IMG/VR virus record: IMGVR_UViG_3300008226_000156
Source: a virus
Length of the DNA stretch: 5,967 bases
Direction: 5' to 3' (one strand)
Shown here: positions 1-5,967 of the stretch, one piece after another
How positions within the stretch are numbered: the first letter of the stretch is position 1
Layout: each line of letters begins with the position of its first letter
Translations under genes and position numbers: made by a program
The notes under the pieces: model-generated
What the model saw: only the letters and a program-made list of their open reading frames with translations
The model's database searches: none
What the model was told of the DNA's origin: nothing

Positions 1-123
1 CTAGTAAAACATTTTATGACCGTTTTAATTCATTAATAGAATGTGGTCTTTCAAAAAGTTTTATCATGGCCATAGAAAATAATTCTTCTAATGTTGTCCC
101 GTTAATTAGAGAAATTACAATTA
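1..123. repeat. Terminal direct repeat, left copy; identical to 5845-5967 (circular-genome overlap)
   Basis: Base-by-base reading: ctagtaaaacattttatgacc...gagaaattacaatta occurs at 1-123 and again at 5845-5967. The repeat lies inside one continuous reading frame, so it marks circular permutation or assembly overlap rather than an LTR or att site. Confidence 0.95.
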
Positions 124-248
124 ATTTTGGAAGCCAAACTCCTTCCGATTATGCCATACCTGAATTACGAATGGCTGCTGGCCTAGATGTATCACTTATG
201 GCAAAAATGAAAAATAAATCTGAACGCCCACAATTGAGAGCAATATAA
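1..248 (+). CDS. gII: 3' end of the gII-like replication initiator (wrap-around continuation of 4749-5967; stop TAA at 246-248)
   Basis: The reading frame is open from base 3 (bases 1-2 complete the codon begun at 5844). The track ORF 66-248 is only the last 60 codons, starting at an internal Met. The C-terminal text ...FYDRFNSLIECGLSKSFIMAIENNSSNVVPLIREITINFGSQTPSDY... parallels the gpII C-terminus. Confidence 0.9.
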   Translation, partial: SKTFYDRFNSLIECGLSKSFIMAIENNSSNVVPLIREITINFGSQTPSDYAIPELRMAAGLDVSLMAKMKNKSERPQLRAI

Positions 249-249
249 A

Positions 250-519
250 ATGTTTACTATCGACTGCATGAAAGATCACTCAGAAGTTCAAACTCGTGAA
301 TTCACGAAGAATAATGAAACTAAAAAAATGTACTCGCAAGATTTGTTTGCTCATCTTGGCGGGCCATTCCCACAAAAAATATCTGTATCAATCGAAGGGC
401 CAGAACATGCTCTAGAAATTGGTAAATACAAATTAACTCAAGAATCTTTTAAGGTCGGCCAGTACGATCGTTTAGAACTTGACGGATTCAACCTAGCTAA
501 AACATTAGTTAAGGCTTAA
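250..519 (+). CDS. gV: ssDNA-binding protein (Ff gpV-like), 89 aa
   Basis: Starts 2 nt after the gII stop. Its size matches gpV (87 aa). The segment KLTQESFKVGQYDRLELDGFNL resembles the M13 gpV segment HLSSFKVGQFGSLMIDRLRL. A GAGAG sequence lies upstream. Position immediately after gII/gX matches Ff. Confidence 0.85.
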   Translation: MFTIDCMKDHSEVQTREFTKNNETKKMYSQDLFAHLGGPFPQKISVSIEGPEHALEIGKYKLTQESFKVGQYDRLELDGFNLAKTLVKA

Positions 520-524
520 TAGTT

Positions 525-746
525 ATGAAATATTCTCCAATCTGTGACGGGAATATTATTGAAAATTCTGACGGTGCATTAGCGTGCTCGGGTAGTTGGT
601 TTACTCAACCTGCTTATGTTCCGTTTGATATGAATCAGATTGATCCTGTATTAGCAACCATGCTTTTTACGGGTGGCTTATTTCTGGTTTTCACCCCTTG
701 GATAACCGCTATTGGTTTTTCCTATATTTTAAAAATGATTAAGTAA
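525..746 (+). CDS. Small membrane protein of unknown function, 73 aa (in the g7p/g9p position; candidate minor virion or assembly protein)
   Basis: AAGG lies about 10 nt upstream of the ATG and the gene is tightly packed between gV and the coat gene. The polar N-terminal half carries Cys residues, followed by a long hydrophobic C-terminal stretch VLATMLFTGGLFLVFTPWITAIGFSYIL. I recognise no family. Confidence 0.55.
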   Translation: MKYSPICDGNIIENSDGALACSGSWFTQPAYVPFDMNQIDPVLATMLFTGGLFLVFTPWITAIGFSYILKMIK

Positions 747-757
747 GGATATTTATT

Positions 758-901
758 ATGGATGCTGCTGCCGTAACTGCTATGACTAGCGCTGTGGATT
801 TCGCAACAATTATCACTGGTATTGCTGCCGTTGCCGCTGTATTGGTTTTGCCAAAAGTTGCAATGAAAGGTGCTCGAATGGTACTTGGTATGATTCGTTA
901 A
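758..901 (+). CDS. gVIII: Major coat protein (g8p-type), 47 aa, with no cleavable signal peptide
   Basis: Not in the ORF track (too short). AAGGA at 745-749 sits 8 nt before ATG 758, and an in-frame TAA at 740-742 prevents any upstream extension. The translation MDAAAVTAMTSAVDFATIITGIAAVAAVLVLPKVAMKGARMVLGMIR has the typical inovirus coat layout: acidic N-terminus (D2, D14), one hydrophobic helix, basic C-terminus (K33, K37, R40, R47). A strong terminator follows. Confidence 0.8.
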   Translation: MDAAAVTAMTSAVDFATIITGIAAVAAVLVLPKVAMKGARMVLGMIR

Positions 902-924
902 TATTAACTTTTGTTAATAGGATT

Positions 925-952
925 GGGGGGCAGAAATGTCCTCCTTTTTTTT
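925..952 (+). terminator. Rho-independent terminator downstream of the major coat gene
   Basis: GGGGGGCA (925-932), GAAA loop (933-936), TGTCCTCC (937-944) form an 8-bp stem that includes two G-U pairs, followed by T8 (945-952). The position corresponds to the known Ff terminator after gene VIII. Confidence 0.75.
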
Positions 953-1033
953 ATGTTGGATTTATATTATTGGACGTTTTTTATAGCAGGTATTTTTTCA
1001 GGTTTTTTAGTTTGGAAAACTTTATCTAGCTAA
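953..1033 (+). CDS. Possible 26-aa hydrophobic peptide (g7p/g9p-sized); speculative
   Basis: ATG 953 to TAA 1031-1033 encodes MLDLYYWTFFIAGIFSGFLVWKTLSS, a single TM-like helix similar in size to the Ff g7p/g9p proteins (32-33 aa). No recognisable Shine-Dalgarno, and it starts inside the terminator T-tract. Confidence 0.2.
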   Translation: MLDLYYWTFFIAGIFSGFLVWKTLSS

Positions 1034-1148: not shown

Positions 1149-1168
1149 TTTTGATCAGGTTTTTTCTT

Positions 1169-2833
1169 ATGAAATTATTTTTAATTTTATTACCTTTACT
1201 TTTATTTTCAGAATTTAGTTATTCATCATTAAATTCTCCGCTTTCTGATTCTTGCCCCTATGGTTACAGGAATTCTGTAACATCTATTTTTGGTCAAAAA
1301 AGACCTGACGTTCCTTCATGCAAAGATTTATATGGCTGGGCTGAAACTGGTCCTGCTGGTTGGTCTACTACTAGTACTAACTTGTGTGTTCTCGAACAGG
1401 TTACTGCTTCTAATTGTGCTGATCCAGAAGATGATACAGAAAACACTGGTGGTTGTTATAAAGATGATCCAAGCGGATGCCCTTCCCTTAAAGACTGCAC
1501 AACTGCATCGGGCAATACATTTTCTTTATCTGAAAACAAAAATTGCTCTGATTACACTGAATCTAATGATCCAGCGATTTGCGGCGAATCTGCGGGTTTG
1601 ATTGTTTGTTTTGTTAATGATGGTGGTGCTGACGGTGGTGCTACTGATGGAACAACCTATACAGGTGGTGATGGTACGGGAAGTGAAGGTGGTGATGGTA
1701 CGGGTAGTGAAGGCGGTGGCGGTGGCGAAGGTGGCGGTGAAGATGATAGAACCACAAATGAAAATTCTTGCGGTATAGGTCAGATAGATGGGGATGCTGG
1801 ATGCGAGCCAATTCCAGATAATTGCGGTTATGTTAACGGTTCTTATCAATGTGCTAATCCAGAGCCTCCCAGTGGATGCGGAACTATTCAAGCACCGGGC
1901 GAATTACCGATAGAGGATTGTTTTGAGCAAGAGGAAAACTGCGGATGGTTTGGTGCTGCGGGTCAAGAAAAATATGGTTGCTTAGATGTTACCAATGATC
2001 CAACTTGTGAAGGTGGAATAATTATTAATGGTGTTTGTAATAATGAAGGTCAAGAGCCAACTAGTTGCCCATCTGGGTATAGTCTTGTAAATGGTGTGTG
2101 TGAGAATTATCAATCATGCCCTATCGGAACCTCTAAGAATTCTTTAACAAATGCTTGTGAAGCAGACGATTGTCCAACGGGTAAATATATGCACATGGGG
2201 CAATGCTTAACAATCCCCGAGCCTCCATCGGCTGAAACTGGTGGTGAAACTGGTGGTGAAAATCAACAACCCAATGAAGTTGATTTAAGTTCAGTTAATT
2301 CAAATCTTAATGAAATAAATAATTCTATAAAAATAGCGGATTCAAATAATGTTAATAAACTGACTCAGGTTAAAAATTCAGTTGATAGCGTAAAAACATC
2401 GGTTGATTCAGTTGGTGAAAAAGTCGATACAGCATCTACAACAAATTCAGAGAAATTAGACAAGCTTAACGATACTGTTTCTAAGATGAATTCATGCGAA
2501 GAGGATGGTGGGGCAAAAGATACATTGCTTTGTAATAAAACGACCGTCTCTATGGAACATACAGTTATTTTAAATACCACATCTGAAGTCATGACAGATT
2601 TTTATAATCGAATCTCTAATGCCCCCATTGCTCTAATGTTTACTGACTCATTCGAAATATTCAATCAAGATGGCCAGTGCTCTGATCTTGTGTTTGATCT
2701 ATCAGACGTTTTTGGGACTGTGATTAGATCAGATGCTCATTGTGTATTACTCGAAATGATACGAACCCCACTTGGTATTTTAATGATACTGGTTTTCTCG
2801 ATCGCTGGTATACGTGTAATAGGGACTGCTTAA
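1169..2833 (+). CDS. gIII: Minor coat / adsorption protein (g3p-like), 554 aa, cysteine-rich and multi-domain
   Basis: ATG 1169 gives a typical signal peptide, MKLFLILLPLLLFSEFSYSS; the track's start at 1151 is a TTG. It has a Cys-rich N-domain, a Gly-rich linker GGADGGATDG..GGDGTGSEGGDGTGSEGGGGGEGGGEDD (compare the GGGS/EGGGS linkers of Ff g3p), a second Cys-rich region, a short ETGGETGGE linker, a heptad-patterned segment, and a C-terminal membrane anchor TPLGILMILVFSIAGIRVIGTA. It lies between the coat gene and the g6p-position gene. Confidence 0.8.
   Translation: MKLFLILLPLLLFSEFSYSSLNSPLSDSCPYGYRNSVTSIFGQKRPDVPSCKDLYGWAETGPAGWSTTSTNLCVLEQVTASNCADPEDDTENTGGCYKDDPSGCPSLKDCTTASGNTFSLSENKNCSDYTESNDPAICGESAGLIVCFVNDGGADGGATDGTTYTGGDGTGSEGGDGTGSEGGGGGEGGGEDDRTTNENSCGIGQIDGDAGCEPIPDNCGYVNGSYQCANPEPPSGCGTIQAPGELPIEDCFEQEENCGWFGAAGQEKYGCLDVTNDPTCEGGIIINGVCNNEGQEPTSCPSGYSLVNGVCENYQSCPIGTSKNSLTNACEADDCPTGKYMHMGQCLTIPEPPSAETGGETGGENQQPNEVDLSSVNSNLNEINNSIKIADSNNVNKLTQVKNSVDSVKTSVDSVGEKVDTASTTNSEKLDKLNDTVSKMNSCEEDGGAKDTLLCNKTTVSMEHTVILNTTSEVMTDFYNRISNAPIALMFTDSFEIFNQDGQCSDLVFDLSDVFGTVIRSDAHCVLLEMIRTPLGILMILVFSIAGIRVIGTA
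1664..1741 (+). repeat. Coding tandem repeat: 24-bp unit x2 (1664-1687, 1688-1711; 1 mismatch), followed by a degenerate GGY-GGY-GAR tract
   Basis: ggtggtgatggtacgggaagtgaa / ggtggtgatggtacgggtagtgaa, then ggcggtggcggtggcgaaggtggcggtgaa. This encodes GGDGTGSE GGDGTGSE GGGGGEGGGE within the g3p linker. Confidence 0.9.
2234..2257 (+). repeat. Coding tandem repeat: 12 bp x2 (gaaactggtggt), encoding ETGG-ETGG (second g3p linker)
   Basis: Read directly from the sequence; the third unit is degenerate (gaaaatcaa). Confidence 0.85.
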
Positions 2834-2834
2834 T

Positions 2835-3140
2835 ATGACTACGCCAACAGTTCCAACACCTCAAGAATGCTCTTGGTATGACTATACATGCGGCTTTGAG
2901 TATTTAGTTAATGAGATTGAAGTAATTATTCTAGGTTTTTTTTATGACTTAATGAGTGCTTTAGCCAGTCTTTTTGAATCTATACCCGTGCCTGATTTTG
3001 TTTCTCAAATACCAACCTATCAGTTACCAGAATTCTTTTTATATTTAACTGATATTCTTCAAGTCTATGAGGGCTGCCAGATCGTAATGGGTGCTTATCT
3101 GATTAGATTCATAATTCGTCGTATTCCGTTCATAGGTTAA
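2835..3140 (+). CDS. Small hydrophobic minor coat protein candidate (g6p position), 101 aa
   Basis: Starts 2 nt after the gIII stop. Its size is near Ff g6p (112 aa). Hydrophobic segments are IEVIILGFFYDLMSALASLF and IVMGAYLIRFIIRRIPFIG. The gIII-gVI-gI order is conserved across inoviruses. The assignment rests on position and composition only. Confidence 0.6.
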   Translation: MTTPTVPTPQECSWYDYTCGFEYLVNEIEVIILGFFYDLMSALASLFESIPVPDFVSQIPTYQLPEFFLYLTDILQVYEGCQIVMGAYLIRFIIRRIPFIG

Positions 3141-3144
3141 TAAA

Positions 3145-4257
3145 ATGGCTATTAGTGCTTATGTCGGCTTGCCCGGCTCTGGTAAATCTTATGGGGTTGT
3201 TGAGAATGTAATTATTCCAGCTCTGAAAGAAGGTCAAACGGTCTTCACTAATATCCCGATGAAAACTGAGTACTGTTTTGAGAAATACGGTAACTCGGTC
3301 ATCCCCTTTGAAATATCTGAAATCATTGAAAATCCTAATTGGTGGACGGAAGTATTCGAAGCAGGGGCAATTTTAGTTATAGATGAGCTTTGGAGGTTGT
3401 GGGCCGCTGGGATCACCAGCAATAAGGCAAGAATGCAGGATAAAGAATTCTTAGCCGAACACCGTCACCTAGTTAACCAACACACGGGTAAATCTACGAG
3501 TATTTGTTTTGTAACTCAAGATTTAGCTCAGATTTCTAACTTTGCTAAGTTACTAGTTGATAAGACGTTTAAATCTACAAAATTAGATGCGGTGGGTGCT
3601 AATAATCGTTTCCGTGTCGATATTTATCAGGGCCAAGTCTCTGGTACTAATATTCCTGATAAAAGCTTAATAACTCAGAAATTCTGCAAATATGATAAAG
3701 ATGTTTATGCGGCTTATGTTTCACATACTAAATCAGAAATTGCGGGGGACGAATCCCGATCGGATGATAGATTCAATTTTCTAAAATCTAAGGCGTTTAA
3801 ATTCTTGGTGATAGCGTTATTCGTGCCAGCTTTTGTGGCTTATAAAGGTCTATCAGAAGTAAACGAAACATATTATAAAACTCCTGATCCAGTTGAAGTT
3901 GTGCCAGGGGAAAATGTTTATCCAGGGAATGAGATTGCAGTAAATACGGGGGCTGTAGCGGTGGCAATTCCTAAAGTAAGAAAGTTTACATTTTTAAGTG
4001 AGATTGACGACGTTTATATTAGCTTCAATATGGGTGCTTTTCCTGATCTTATCTATCAGTTAACAGTTGAAAACGACGGGGCTTATAATTCGGTGTTTAC
4101 TGCTGACCAGTTGGCACTTTTGGATTACTCGTTAACGCCTATTTCAACCTGTGCGGTTAGGGTTACAGGGCCAGATTTTGACAGCGTAGTTTTGTGTCGT
4201 TCTGCTAAAAAGGGACGTAATGCTATAGAAAGAGCTGTTAGCACAACCAGAGATTGA
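3145..4257 (+). CDS. gI: Assembly ATPase, Zot / gpI family, 370 aa
   Basis: N-terminal Walker A GLPGSGKS (nt 3166-3189), Walker B-like ILVIDELW, a single TM FKFLVIALFVPAFVAYKGL around residues 217-235, then a C-terminal domain of about 135 aa. This is the typical Zot/gpI architecture and gene position. Confidence 0.92.
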   Translation: MAISAYVGLPGSGKSYGVVENVIIPALKEGQTVFTNIPMKTEYCFEKYGNSVIPFEISEIIENPNWWTEVFEAGAILVIDELWRLWAAGITSNKARMQDKEFLAEHRHLVNQHTGKSTSICFVTQDLAQISNFAKLLVDKTFKSTKLDAVGANNRFRVDIYQGQVSGTNIPDKSLITQKFCKYDKDVYAAYVSHTKSEIAGDESRSDDRFNFLKSKAFKFLVIALFVPAFVAYKGLSEVNETYYKTPDPVEVVPGENVYPGNEIAVNTGAVAVAIPKVRKFTFLSEIDDVYISFNMGAFPDLIYQLTVENDGAYNSVFTADQLALLDYSLTPISTCAVRVTGPDFDSVVLCRSAKKGRNAIERAVSTTRD

Positions 4258-4487: not shown

Positions 4488-4688
4488 TTATTCGAGCTCT
4501 GCGAGCAGTTCAGCGGTTGTTTTGTTCAAAAAATGAGCAGCCTTTTCGAGCATTTCAAGATTTAATTTCTCTATCTCCCCGCTCTCTATTCTTGATATTG
4601 ATGCTCTCGTAGTTCCTGCTGCATCTGCTAATTCTTGACCTTCTAAACCAGCATCTCTTAAGTATTTTATTAATATCTTTGCTTTCAT
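4488..4688 (-). CDS. XRE/Cro-CI-type helix-turn-helix transcriptional regulator, 66 aa, divergent from gII
   Basis: MKAKILIKYLRDAGLEGQELADAAGTTRASISRIESGE... carries the HTH_3-like core (QELADAAGTTRASISRIESG). It is the only minus-strand gene, and its arrangement relative to the replication gene mirrors rstR/rstA of CTXphi. Confidence 0.8.
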   Translation of the reverse strand: MKAKILIKYLRDAGLEGQELADAAGTTRASISRIESGEIEKLNLEMLEKAAHFLNKTTAELLAELE

Positions 4689-4748: not shown

Positions 4749-5967
4749 ATGATAGATAAGCTTGAACTAAGGATACCGTTTAAAGACGAGCATTGCATCT
4801 TCGCACCTGATCGCTCTAGCGCTGTTTTACCTAGTTTTGACAAGTACATTATTAATGATGGCTTAGAAACTCGCACAACTCGATCTATCGACCACGAATC
4901 AACAATTATTAATTCATTCGAAACTCACTCTTATGAATCTTTAGCTAGCTCTTTTTCAGGGGTTGCTTTCTGCATTATGAGCAAAGGTAATGGCGGTTAT
5001 CCGTTTCCTTATATTATGCTTAAATGTTCACCTGCAAAAATCCTTCAAGGGCATAATGTATTCGGCTTTGATGATCCTAAGCTTGGCTTTCTTGAGATGA
5101 TCGGCACGTTGTTAGAATCCTATCCTACTGTTTTTAATGATGTAGATTTTTTACGATCCGAACTAATGCAAATAGATTGCACGTATTTTTCTAGATTTGA
5201 AAATCAAGGTTTAGCAGAGCAGGCGATTAAAGCGCTCTCAACAACTTCTAACGGACAAATCAAAGGAAGATCAACTTTTGAAACTAGTGTTTATTGGAAT
5301 ACTGTGGGTGGTAGCTCTGGTCGTAGTGGCGGCTCTCACATAACACGGGTAGCATATTTAAAACTCCCAGAAGTAATGAACGAAATAGCAGAACTAGAAA
5401 AAGTAGTTAAAAAACTTGGAAGGCAAAAAAGCTGTAGTCTCTCGGATAATAAAAAACATAAAAGAACTTATGACAGGTTAAAATCTCTCAACTCAGTTAA
5501 AGATTATTGCGTTGGAATGGTAAGATTTGAAGGCCGCATAAAAGCTCGTAAACTTAGGGATTCGGGCATCCCAACAAACATGATTAAATTTATAAAATAC
5601 TGCTCTGATCGTAAAGAAAGCACGATTCAAGACTTATGGCACATGGCTTTCGATCCTATATTTAAGACCTTTGAAGGGCTAACACTTATGAAAACAGATG
5701 ATAAAAGTATTCTAGAATCAATTGAAAAAAATCTAGTAACTGTTAGTGATAAAGGTCGGGTTAACCGTAGGCGTGCAAATTCCGCGCGTGGTTTTTACTT
5801 TGAGTTGAAATCAATGGGTTATGCTTTCGTTAAATCTTCAACTCCTAGTAAAACATTTTATGACCGTTTTAATTCATTAATAGAATGTGGTCTTTCAAAA
5901 AGTTTTATCATGGCCATAGAAAATAATTCTTCTAATGTTGTCCCGTTAATTAGAGAAATTACAATTA
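4749..5967 (+). CDS. gII: Rolling-circle replication initiation protein (Ff gpII / Phage_CRI family), 5' part. The frame runs off the window end and continues at 1-248; 447 aa in total on the circle.
   Basis: Hand translation from ATG 4749 shows no stop through 5967, and the frame is continuous with the 66-248 ORF (5910 = 66 + 5844, same phase). It is absent from the ORF track only because no stop lies inside the window. N-terminus MIDKLELRIPF, and motifs LKCSPAKILQGHNVFG, IDCTYFSRF, SNGQIKGRS, ETSVYWN, VAYLK, MVRFEGRIKARKL, FKTFEG and SNVVPLIREI, match from memory the M13/f1 gpII motifs MIDMLVLRLPF, KASPAKVLQGHNVFG, VRFEARIKTRYL, FKAFEG and NNVVPLVRFI. Confidence 0.92.
   Translation, partial: MIDKLELRIPFKDEHCIFAPDRSSAVLPSFDKYIINDGLETRTTRSIDHESTIINSFETHSYESLASSFSGVAFCIMSKGNGGYPFPYIMLKCSPAKILQGHNVFGFDDPKLGFLEMIGTLLESYPTVFNDVDFLRSELMQIDCTYFSRFENQGLAEQAIKALSTTSNGQIKGRSTFETSVYWNTVGGSSGRSGGSHITRVAYLKLPEVMNEIAELEKVVKKLGRQKSCSLSDNKKHKRTYDRLKSLNSVKDYCVGMVRFEGRIKARKLRDSGIPTNMIKFIKYCSDRKESTIQDLWHMAFDPIFKTFEGLTLMKTDDKSILESIEKNLVTVSDKGRVNRRRANSARGFYFELKSMGYAFVKSSTPSKTFYDRFNSLIECGLSKSFIMAIENNSSNVVPLIREITI
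5688..5967 (+). CDS. gX: Candidate gX-like protein: in-frame internal start within gII, sharing its C-terminus (wraps to 248; about 134 aa)
   Basis: ATG 5688 is in the gII frame. It is preceded by GAAGGG (5672-5677) with 10 nt of spacing. In the alignment FEGLTLMKTDDKSILESI versus M13 FEGDSMNIYDDSAVLDAI, this Met falls at the same position as the M13 gene X start. Confidence 0.55.
   Translation, partial: MKTDDKSILESIEKNLVTVSDKGRVNRRRANSARGFYFELKSMGYAFVKSSTPSKTFYDRFNSLIECGLSKSFIMAIENNSSNVVPLIREITI
5845..5967. repeat. Terminal direct repeat, right copy; identical to 1-123
   Basis: Same 123-nt string as 1-123. This implies a 5,844-bp circular unit. Confidence 0.95.

Follow-up and report, generated by a model that had tools for sequence, protein, structure and literature searches.

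A predicted array of eight disulfide-closed hairpins in the middle of an inovirus adsorption protein

The stretch of DNA analysed here, 5,967 nucleotides (nt) from the IMG/VR virus record IMGVR_UViG_3300008226_000156 (hereafter the window), carries at 1151-2833 on the plus strand an open reading frame (ORF) whose product we refer to as the window protein. By its architecture and its genomic context this product appears to be an adsorption (tip) protein of the g3p/CoaA type, and its Cys-rich middle (amino acids (aa) 200-360, nt 1748-2230; hereafter the central region) is, as judged from structure models, probably an array of eight hairpins that are each closed by a disulfide. We have a known kind of protein, an inovirus adsorption protein, with a new middle domain. 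The explanation that we consider the best as a whole, and to which we give a probability of about 0.5, is that the middle ectodomain combines a disulfide-stapled stalk with a conserved binding core. All residue numbers are counted from the TTG codon at 1151.

The cysteine-rich central region of the window protein

The assignment of the window protein to the g3p class is based on the position of its gene, which is located between a gVIII-like coat gene and the genes for a g6p-like protein and Zot/gI, on its signal peptide and Gly-rich linkers, and on a C-terminal Cys pair that precedes a hydrophobic helix. The C-terminal part of the protein also matches phrog_1698 ('minor head protein; receptor binding', E = 1.2e-4) as well as phrog_3942 and phrog_7187, and was aligned by blastp to the C-terminus of CoaA from Pseudomonas phage 36-2 (E = 8e-4). 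A preliminary description of this DNA had called the protein g3p-like, which agrees with the gene position, the layout and these C-terminal matches. It had further estimated that the gene takes up about 28% of the genome and that the protein holds about 30 cysteines, divided 10/16/4 among the N-domain, the central region and the C-terminal domain. Both estimates were accurate: the 1683 nt of the gene make up 28.2% of the 5967 nt (28.8% of the 5844-nt unit genome), and the cysteines number exactly 30 and are split in precisely this way. They are found at aa 35, 57, 79, 89, 102, 110, 116, 132, 144 and 153 in the N-domain, at aa 207, 218, 225, 234, 243, 257, 264, 277, 286, 296, 306, 317, 323, 336, 341 and 352 in the central region, and at aa 449, 461, 510 and 531 in the C-terminal domain. 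The resulting Cys density is 5.4%; for comparison, six proteins that occupy the g3p position in deposited inoviruses have 1.9-3.9%.

The 16 central cysteines form eight consecutive pairs, which we named modules m1 to m8 (Table 1). The preliminary description had quoted five modules, and the peptides of all five are present verbatim; the number of modules is nevertheless eight, m1, m3 and m4 having been missed. It had also considered the region to be bracketed by two PEPPS motifs. Both motifs are present, at aa 237 (nt 1859-1873) and aa 356 (nt 2216-2230), but the first of them sits between m2 and m3 and is thus no bracket.

For the analysis of internal periodicity, the family alignment was cut into module sub-profiles, these were compared by hhalign, and the scores were set against those of 100 column shuffles of one partner, which overall were 8-10 +- 2-2.6. 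The results showed that m1+m2 match m3+m4 with a probability of 90% (score 27.9, null 9.9+-2.5), that m2 matches m4 with 95% (score 25.2, null 8.2+-2.1) and that m6 matches m7 with 89% (score 23.8, null 8.8+-2.1); in none of these three comparisons was the observed score reached by any of the 100 shuffles. The probability was 84% for m1 versus m7, and 49% for m6 versus m8, the score of the latter pair being above all 100 shuffles. An exception was the coarse comparison of m5+m6 with m7+m8, for which 2 of 100 shuffles reached the observed score. The string of similar modules read in the preliminary description is thus matched by a significant internal periodicity. As the sub-profile scores lie above those of the shuffles, we distinguish two repeat types: an A-type double module with 4 Cys, present twice (m1-m4, the A-half), and a B-type CPxG...GxC unit (m6-m8, with m5 looser; m5-m8 being the B-half). 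The A-half appears to be an internal duplication of the 4-Cys double module, specific to this protein family. A recent DNA duplication was rejected as the origin of the modules, since DNA similarity between them is limited to two weak stretches of 20-23 nt (75-78%). Unlike the near-perfect repeats of the linkers described below, the modules seem to be old at the DNA level.

Structure prediction by AlphaFold2 (AF2) for the full-length protein (9 sequences) reached a predicted local distance difference test score (pLDDT) of 42.5, and secondary structure alone was used from it. For the central region (13 sequences) the pLDDT was 60.5, with values of 72-78 at aa 200-220 and 68-85 at aa ~310-355 (m6-m8). 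Both runs gave, at low to moderate confidence, exactly one beta-hairpin per Cys pair, with strands that start at the first Cys in m2, m3 and m4 and end at the second Cys in m2 and m3. We infer that each module is a hairpin closed by its own intramodule disulfide from these predictions, from the all-or-none gain and loss of two-Cys units among relatives, from the two-Cys units of proteins outside the family, and from the precedent of Ff pIII with its consecutive disulfides.

The central region has no family in Pfam, NCBIfam or PHROGs, and its profile had zero matches among PDB sequences even at E <= 10. Foldseek searches with the central-region model (pLDDT 60.5) gave nothing significant, neither against PDB, where the best E was 0.24 and the highest ranks were taken by the meckelin Cys-rich region, Pfs25 EGFs, TNFR cysteine-rich domains (CRDs), R-spondin furin repeats and reovirus sigma1, nor against BFVD (best E = 1.8e-3 with a template modelling (TM) score of 0.15, to adenovirus fibre shafts). 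Megablast of the window DNA against 50,697 phage records returned no match. In tblastn searches of the same records, the whole protein and the central region matched only unrelated Ralstonia podovirus genes at E >= 3. In the literature searched, no description of the domain was found. To judge from these searches, the central domain belongs to no curated family, has no structural neighbour, solved or predicted, and is not matched in any of the 50,697 deposited phage genomes.

The preliminary description had held the region to be unlike the N1/N2 domains of Ff and CTXphi, and none of the comparisons made placed it in those folds: Pfam gave no N1/N2 match for the whole protein (E <= 0.1) or the central region (E <= 10), PHROGs placed the region in no g3p domain, the family profiles found no g3p entry among all PDB sequences, blastp against M13 g3p reached a best E of 0.85, and the Foldseek lists from PDB and BFVD contained no g3p N1/N2 entry for this query model of pLDDT 60.5. 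Its comparison of the modules with EGF/furin-type knotted repeats did not hold. An EGF-like domain comprises about 40 residues with six Cys bonded 1-3, 2-4 and 5-6; in EGF, EB and furin domains the bonds interleave among 6-8 Cys, and the modules of furin and TNFR CRDs have 4-8 Cys. The repeat unit of the central region has 2 Cys in 10-15 residues, not 6-8. No match was obtained to the Pfam models of furin (PF00757), TNFR (PF00020) or related families, and no EGF-family Pfam model was reported at E <= 10 for 8 family members. The CC model scored 13.4 bits in the window protein against a cut-off of 20.6 (E = 0.086), and the EB model was at best at E = 0.038 in one of eight family members, below its cut-off. 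The Foldseek matches to EGF, TNFR and furin structures were all non-significant (E > 0.2, TM about 0.15), including those to the EGFs of Pfs25 and NELL1 (E >= 0.33) and those to R-spondin Fu1-Fu2 and the CRDs of CD40, 4-1BB and TNFR1 (E = 0.6-3, TM 0.15-0.2).

Modules m6-m8, and m5 more loosely, fit the tandem-unit motif C-P-x-G-x(5-9)-[G]-x-C. About 75 of the 86 significant representative matches of the central-region profile were restricted to profile positions ~83-160 (m5-m8), with 2-11 stretches each, and the m5-m8 profile matched such outside proteins down to E = 4e-18, these E-values being sums over many short motif matches. The proteins concerned are long repeat proteins of bacteria and insects with 2 Cys per unit. 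One of them (P0011) contains ten copies of CPSGKERVNGAC..., and two bacterial-looking ones (P0013 and P0020) combine more than 10 CPxGxxLxNGxC units with a signal peptide and a transmembrane segment at the C-terminus; the insect examples include a Culex 'cell wall cysteine-rich protein' and an uncharacterised protein of Aricia agestis. Like m5-m8, their units follow C-P-x-G-[YT]-x-L-x-N-G-x-C in tandem. The outside repeats partly overlap Pfam EB (PF01683), CC (PF04942), cEGF (PF12662) and the C5-C6 sub-loop of EGF, and some of the proteins reach the EB threshold (P0012, 38.6 bits) or touch cEGF/EGF_TEN. Unlike the window protein, however, they are long monotonous arrays and have no phage context. 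By sequence, m5-m8 thus look like instances of a generic and widespread two-Cys hairpin building block. Among inoviruses, CoaA of phage 36-2 has one B-type module, CPAGYSWSGTTC, between Pro-rich linkers (L010:4114-5439), and the g3p-position protein of Alteromonas phage phiAFP1 has a short Cys cluster, CPNGQCPTGCGTFDIGGGPVFVC (L011:2153-3706, minus strand). Inovirus tip proteins may have made repeated use of the two-Cys hairpin as a building block.

Relatives, module number and rates of evolution

Eight relatives of the window protein were obtained by a word-indexed search of 5.8 billion proteins. When the central-region profile was run exhaustively as a hidden Markov model against 1.84 billion representatives, nothing was gained but fragments and a single relative of partial architecture; a second word-indexed search with the domain profile added two more fragments and nothing else, and scans of genomes and viral contigs added seven further loci. 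In all there are about 15 sequences, all uncultured, which belong to metagenomic inoviruses or to prophages of Oceanospirillales. The named hosts are metagenome-assembled genomes (MAGs) of Saccharospirillaceae and Bacterioplanes, a further prophage host is the genome GCA_052730335.1, and the hosts appear to be marine Gammaproteobacteria of the Oceanospirillales type. On two long contigs, the homologue lies between a Phage_coatGP8 gene and DUF5455 plus Zot, within integrase-bearing prophages. For the prophage relatives L001:13296-14921 and L002:13257-14831, two unannotated ORFs (~60-90 and ~440-450 aa) were observed between Zot and the integrase; these ORFs have no Pfam match and no counterpart in the window. 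Another homologue (P0008) is carried by a contig of 2169 nt (L005, CAYFHS010000086.1) that was binned in a MAG labelled 'uncultured archaeon'. Since the homologues are otherwise found in gammaproteobacterial prophages, this label is most likely a binning artefact and does not point to an archaeal inovirus.

All 16 central cysteines (16/16) are invariant in 8 full-length homologues, which are 44-78% identical to the central region of the window protein, and across the 9 full-length proteins the invariant positions of this region number 51, i.e. 16 Cys and 35 others. The number of modules, whose possible variation had been raised in the preliminary description, does differ among related phages, but only in the B-type units, while the A-half is constant. 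In P0009 there is one extra module at m5/m6 and three at m6/m7 (+8 Cys), and two more lie beyond the Pro-rich linker. L009 has m1-m4 only (8 Cys) and P0025 has m1-m3 only (6 Cys; m3 without m4), with the linker and the helix coming immediately after them in both. The relatives thus have 0, 4, 8 or more B-type units, and the A-half is found in every one of them, L009 and P0025 included, both of which are without the B-half. Modules are always gained or lost in whole 2-Cys units. The hairpin loops of m1, m3, m4, m6 and m7 vary between homologues.

Mean pairwise identity is 28% in the N-domain, 59% in the central region (54% without the Cys columns), 38% in the helix and 23% in the C-terminal domain. 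The N-domain is the most diverged part in all three of the closest pairs: identities of the N-domain, the central region and the C-terminal part are 35%, 74% and 73% for the window protein and P0002, 55%, 82% and 98% for P0003 and P0004, and 39%, 78% and 73% for L008 and P0006. The ratio of nonsynonymous to synonymous substitution rates (dN/dS, Nei-Gojobori) was 0.10-0.11 for the central region and 0.04-0.08 for the helix plus C-terminal part; the value of 0.27-0.50 for the N-domain is rough because dS was saturated, as in most comparisons. The central region therefore appears to be the most conserved part by identity and to be under strong purifying selection, and the N-domain to be fast-evolving. 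For this reason the central region is probably not the determinant of host range, and the N-domain is a candidate for the primary-receptor, host-range domain. The preliminary description had suggested that the Cys-rich modules may define a new receptor-binding architecture. That they match no known domain was upheld; a role in host range is doubtful, as it is the N-domain that diverges fastest, and the function of a conserved stalk or of a secondary-receptor contact agrees better with the data.

Between P0003 (L016:44-1693) and P0004 (L017:3973-5631), dS is about 1.3-1.4 in the N-domain and central region and 0.29 in the helix and C-terminal part. This drop suggests a recombination breakpoint near linker 2, with the N-domain and the Cys array being exchanged as a cassette against the virion anchor.

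Proposed function of the array and alternative explanations

In the explanation that we favour, the window protein would be exported via Sec, and its consecutive Cys pairs would be stapled by DsbA-type oxidation on emergence into the periplasm. The result would be a rigid, protease-resistant rod on each tip subunit (about five), tethered by flexible linkers rich in Gly, Pro and Thr. The N-domain would make the host-specific first contact, presumably with a pilus, and the B-type hairpins would be a length-adjustable stalk that sets the reach. The A-half would act in a host-independent step, most likely by engaging a conserved envelope component, and would thus take the role of the N1-TolA interaction with an unrelated fold and in swapped order. 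That the A-half is a conserved co-receptor binder is proposed by analogy and is held tentatively. We are more doubtful of the full form of this proposal, in which the A-half is a secondary-receptor domain that replaces the N1-TolA solution in marine Oceanospirillales inoviruses, the B-hairpins are a stalk tunable by copy number, and the domain order is reversed.

Several points weigh against this explanation. Of the 51 invariant positions, 36 (71%) are C, G or P, as expected of a purely structural scaffold, and the family is small. The disulfide connectivity is a predicted one, and over aa ~237-304 (m3-m5) the AF2 pLDDT is below 50, too low for the model of this part to be usable. The likeness of m5-m8 to the outside repeats lies in a short Cys/Pro/Gly motif and may have arisen by convergence. 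Furthermore, in Ff and CTXphi the TolA-binding domain is N-terminal, whereas the order proposed here is the reverse, and the C-domains of TolA differ considerably in sequence from genus to genus, which makes a conserved target harder to deduce from a conserved domain.

The composition of the invariant positions would also fit the strongest of the alternatives, which is that all eight modules are only a rigid spacer projecting the N-domain, with no ligand of their own. The variable module number, the occurrence of B-type modules in long repetitive surface proteins and the nature of the nearest, non-significant structural neighbours, which are shafts and Cys-rich spacers (adenovirus fibre, sigma1, TNFR and EGF arrays), would fit it likewise. 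We nevertheless consider a mere spacer rather unlikely. The linkers between modules and the residues outside the scaffold are conserved too (PIPDNCGY, PEPPSGCGTI, CFEE, GGxxINGVCN, DDCPxGKY; among the residues are Y227, Y232, F258, E259 and D279), and the identity without Cys columns together with a dN/dS of 0.1 indicates more constraint than is usual for spacers. The identity of the central region even exceeds that of the virion-anchoring C-domain, and the A-half is never lost although the flexible linkers already provide spacing.

Clearly less probable is a reading along the lines of the preliminary description, in which the central region would itself be a new domain for binding the primary receptor, EGF/furin-like and knotted, and would set the specificity of adsorption. 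This region is the most conserved segment across phages of different host genera; it matches no EGF, furin or TNFR model and has 2 Cys per unit only; and the loss of four modules in L009 and P0025, or the gain of four or more in P0009, is tolerated. These observations outweigh, in our opinion, those that agree with a primary-receptor function, namely that the ectodomain is exposed and has flexible linkers, that it shows no similarity to N1/N2, that five of the hairpin loops are variable, and that the N-domain and the central region seem to have been exchanged together in P0003/P0004.

Very improbable is a known fold in disguise, be it a diverged g3p N1/N2-type domain or a zinc-ribbon-like one whose Cys ligate metal instead of forming disulfides: nothing positive speaks for it except that AF2 confidence is low enough to leave room for a remote fold similarity, and it is opposed by the lack of any Pfam, PHROG or PDB profile match to g3p domains and of any g3p in the Foldseek lists, by 16 Cys in 146 aa versus 6 Cys in the ~200 aa of M13 N1+N2, and by the signal peptide of a presumably extracytoplasmic protein, Cys pairs being oxidised in that location by established Dsb biology. 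Metal-binding Cys had also been rejected on the grounds that neighbouring central Cys are 5-14 residues apart and that there is no CxxC/CxxH motif.

To our knowledge, the entry of filamentous phages is understood mechanistically for few proteins (those of Ff, IF1/IKe and CTXphi), all of which are of the globular N1/N2 type. In addition to the position gVIII - gIII - gVI - gI and the signal peptide, which by extension are also those of CTXphi pIII and CoaA, the window protein shares with Ff pIII the plan of two ectodomains with low-complexity Gly-rich linkers between them, and with M13 g3p a Cys pair (C372-C389 of the precursor, C510-C531 here) before the terminal hydrophobic helix. Ff pIII has its two ectodomains on Gly linkers, binds TolA by N1 and has four disulfides, all between consecutive Cys (PMC10175506), as is predicted for the window protein. 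In contrast, N1/N2 show no sequence similarity and no detectable similarity in fold to the low-confidence window model, Ff pIII has 8 Cys versus 30, and its middle domain is a globular beta-barrel, not a predicted eight-unit hairpin repeat. The window protein also differs in that its conserved domain is the inner one and its variable domain is N-terminal, and in having a predicted helix of roughly 70 residues after linker 2.

Phages 36-2, PMBT54 and phiAFP1 have a morphogenesis module related to that of the window phage, and the proteins of 36-2 and PMBT54 share with the window protein the C-terminal motif '...xHC-x(10-12)-hydrophobic helix'. Unlike the window protein, however, the proteins of these three phages have 14-17 Cys, no eight-module array and no A-half. 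The shafts of adenovirus fibre and reovirus sigma1 resemble the plan proposed here in being a repeated beta-hairpin stalk with a variable distal head, but they are obligate trimers (triple beta-spiral) without disulfides, and the match to them is a weak one from a low-confidence monomer model.

The window protein is thus a g3p-class protein with a different ectodomain, a predicted disulfide-stapled hairpin array to which no curated family or solved structure was matched, and phages from several genera of marine Gammaproteobacteria have this array in conserved form, in contrast to the diverging distal head. If the A-half is a binder and the B-half a stalk, this would be a third structural solution for filamentous-phage entry, with the variable head first and the conserved binder second. 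Binding of the A-half to a conserved envelope component would explain the passage of uncultured marine inoviruses through the envelope. It would also provide a compact modular scaffold that folds in the periplasm, with units of 10-15 residues and consecutive disulfides, on which retargeted M13-type phages or display libraries could be built. Should the array be no more than a stalk, it would remain a clear example of how repeat number evolves in an adsorption protein of a phage. General principles are unchanged by the finding, which gives a concrete and testable handle on the entry of marine inoviruses.

Layout of the protein and the genome

The coordinates of all features are given in Table 1. 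The ORF encodes 560 aa from the TTG at 1151 and 554 aa from the ATG at 1169 (P0001). The ATG is likely the true start, since the gene call P0001 has 554 aa and the homologues begin with MK... The signal peptide is probably cleaved after SYS, and the hydrophobic segments of the protein are aa 1-27 and 529-560. Coding on the plus strand was confirmed by dN/dS values of 0.04-0.5 across the regions of the protein. We do not regard the minus-strand ORFs at 1526-1891, 1982-2113 and 2133-2228 as genes, since all relatives have conserved the protein of the plus frame, with a dN/dS of ~0.1.

No family or fold match was obtained for the N-domain in Pfam, NCBIfam or PHROGs. It opens with CPYGYRN (aa 35-41, 1253-1273), a conserved C-P-x-G-x-R-N motif that resembles the start of a B-type module. 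All 9 proteins have C35 and G38; apart from C35, only C89, C102 and C132 are invariant among the Cys of this domain.

In linker 1, 15-mers with at least 40% Gly span aa 158-204, and the DNA contains a 24-nt repeat x2.3 (GGDGTGSE) at 1663-1718, a 12-nt repeat x2.1 at 1618-1642 and a 6-nt repeat x2.7 at 1712-1727. Linker 2 contains a perfect 12-nt x2.4 tandem repeat (ETGG) at 2233-2261. Linker length and composition differ among homologues, which have GDP, GDGSSS, PTD and GTDP units and GT-, PT- or DP-rich versions of linker 2. These near-perfect in-frame tandem repeats, with units and lengths that differ between homologues, suggest that linker length evolves by slippage.

The helix that follows linker 2 was predicted by AF2 at aa 380-447 with low confidence, and D378, L379, N383, L386 and N399 are invariant in this region. 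Against PDB, the full-length profile gave heptad-repeat matches only, at profile positions ~377-513 (helix and C-terminal part). They include paramyxovirus F (7ki4, E = 1e-4; 'VDISSQISSMNQSL' of heptad repeat B) and influenza HA2 (E ~5e-3). Such matches to viral fusion proteins probably reflect coiled-coil composition; at the tip of the phage, the helix may form a pentameric coiled-coil neck or act as a refolding element like that of fusion proteins. Matches to Syntaxin, TraP and IcmG, which also lie on the helical region, were rejected as coiled-coil noise. The C-terminal domain ends with the Cys pair C510-C531 (2678-2743) and a terminal hydrophobic helix (aa ~531-559).

Table 1. Positions of the modules and regions of the window protein and of the genes in the window
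Feature	Position (nt)	Strand	Remarks
Signal peptide	1151-1225	+	hydrophobic core LFLILLPLLLF; from hydropathy scan and aligned homologue N-termini
N-terminal ectodomain (N-domain)	1226-1615	+	aa 26-155; 10 Cys; fastest-evolving part
Linker 1	1616-1747	+	aa 156-199; Gly-rich, flexible; built of DNA tandem repeats
A-half of the Cys-rich region	1760-1987	+	aa 204-279; m1-m4
m1	1769-1804	+	C207-C218; CGIGQIDGDAGC
m2	1823-1852	+	C225-C234; CGYVNGSYQC
m3	1877-1921	+	C243-C257; CGTIQAPGELPIEDC
m4	1940-1981	+	C264-C277; CGWFGAAGQEKYGC
B-half of the Cys-rich region	1997-2218	+	aa 283-356; m5-m8
m5	2006-2038	+	C286-C296; CEGGIIINGVC
m6	2066-2101	+	C306-C317; CPSGYSLVNGVC
m7	2117-2158	+	C323-C336; CPIGTSKNSLTNAC
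m8	2171-2206	+	C341-C352; CPTGKYMHMGQC
Linker 2	2219-2275	+	aa 357-375; Pro-rich start, then ETGG repeats
Long predicted alpha-helix	2276-2491	+	aa 376-447; opens with the conserved motif VDLSSVNSxLDxI...ADxNN
C-terminal virion-anchor domain	2492-2830	+	aa 448-560; Cys loop C449-C461
60-aa ORF	66-248		C-terminal, gX-like end of rep
Single-stranded DNA-binding protein	250-519		PF02303
Small ORF	525-746		phrog_4800
Major coat protein, gVIII-like	758-901		phrog_2186
Small ORF	911-1033		
g3p/CoaA-type adsorption (minor coat) protein gene	1151-2833	+	
g6p-like protein	2835-3140		phrog_974
Zot/gI	3145-4257		PF05707, E = 6e-25
Helix-turn-helix repressor	4488-4688		divergent
rep ORF (gII-like, Phage_CRI-type)	~4674 to window end		continues across the junction

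An exact 123-bp direct repeat is present at the ends of the window (1-123 and 5845-5967). The window is therefore a complete small inovirus genome, circularly permuted, with a unit length of 5844 nt, and its gene order is canonical for an inovirus. Rfam and tRNA scans of both strands of the window gave no match. A secretin (gIV-like) gene is not evident in the window, which apart from rep, the g3p-like gene and Zot has no ORF above 150 aa; the phage therefore presumably depends on a secretin of its host. PMBT54, a related phage, carries a gene for a PilQ-like protein. By Zot, the closest deposited phages (range 30-41% identity) are Pseudomonas phages 36-2 and PMBT54 (~40% identity) and Alteromonas phage phiAFP1 (30%).

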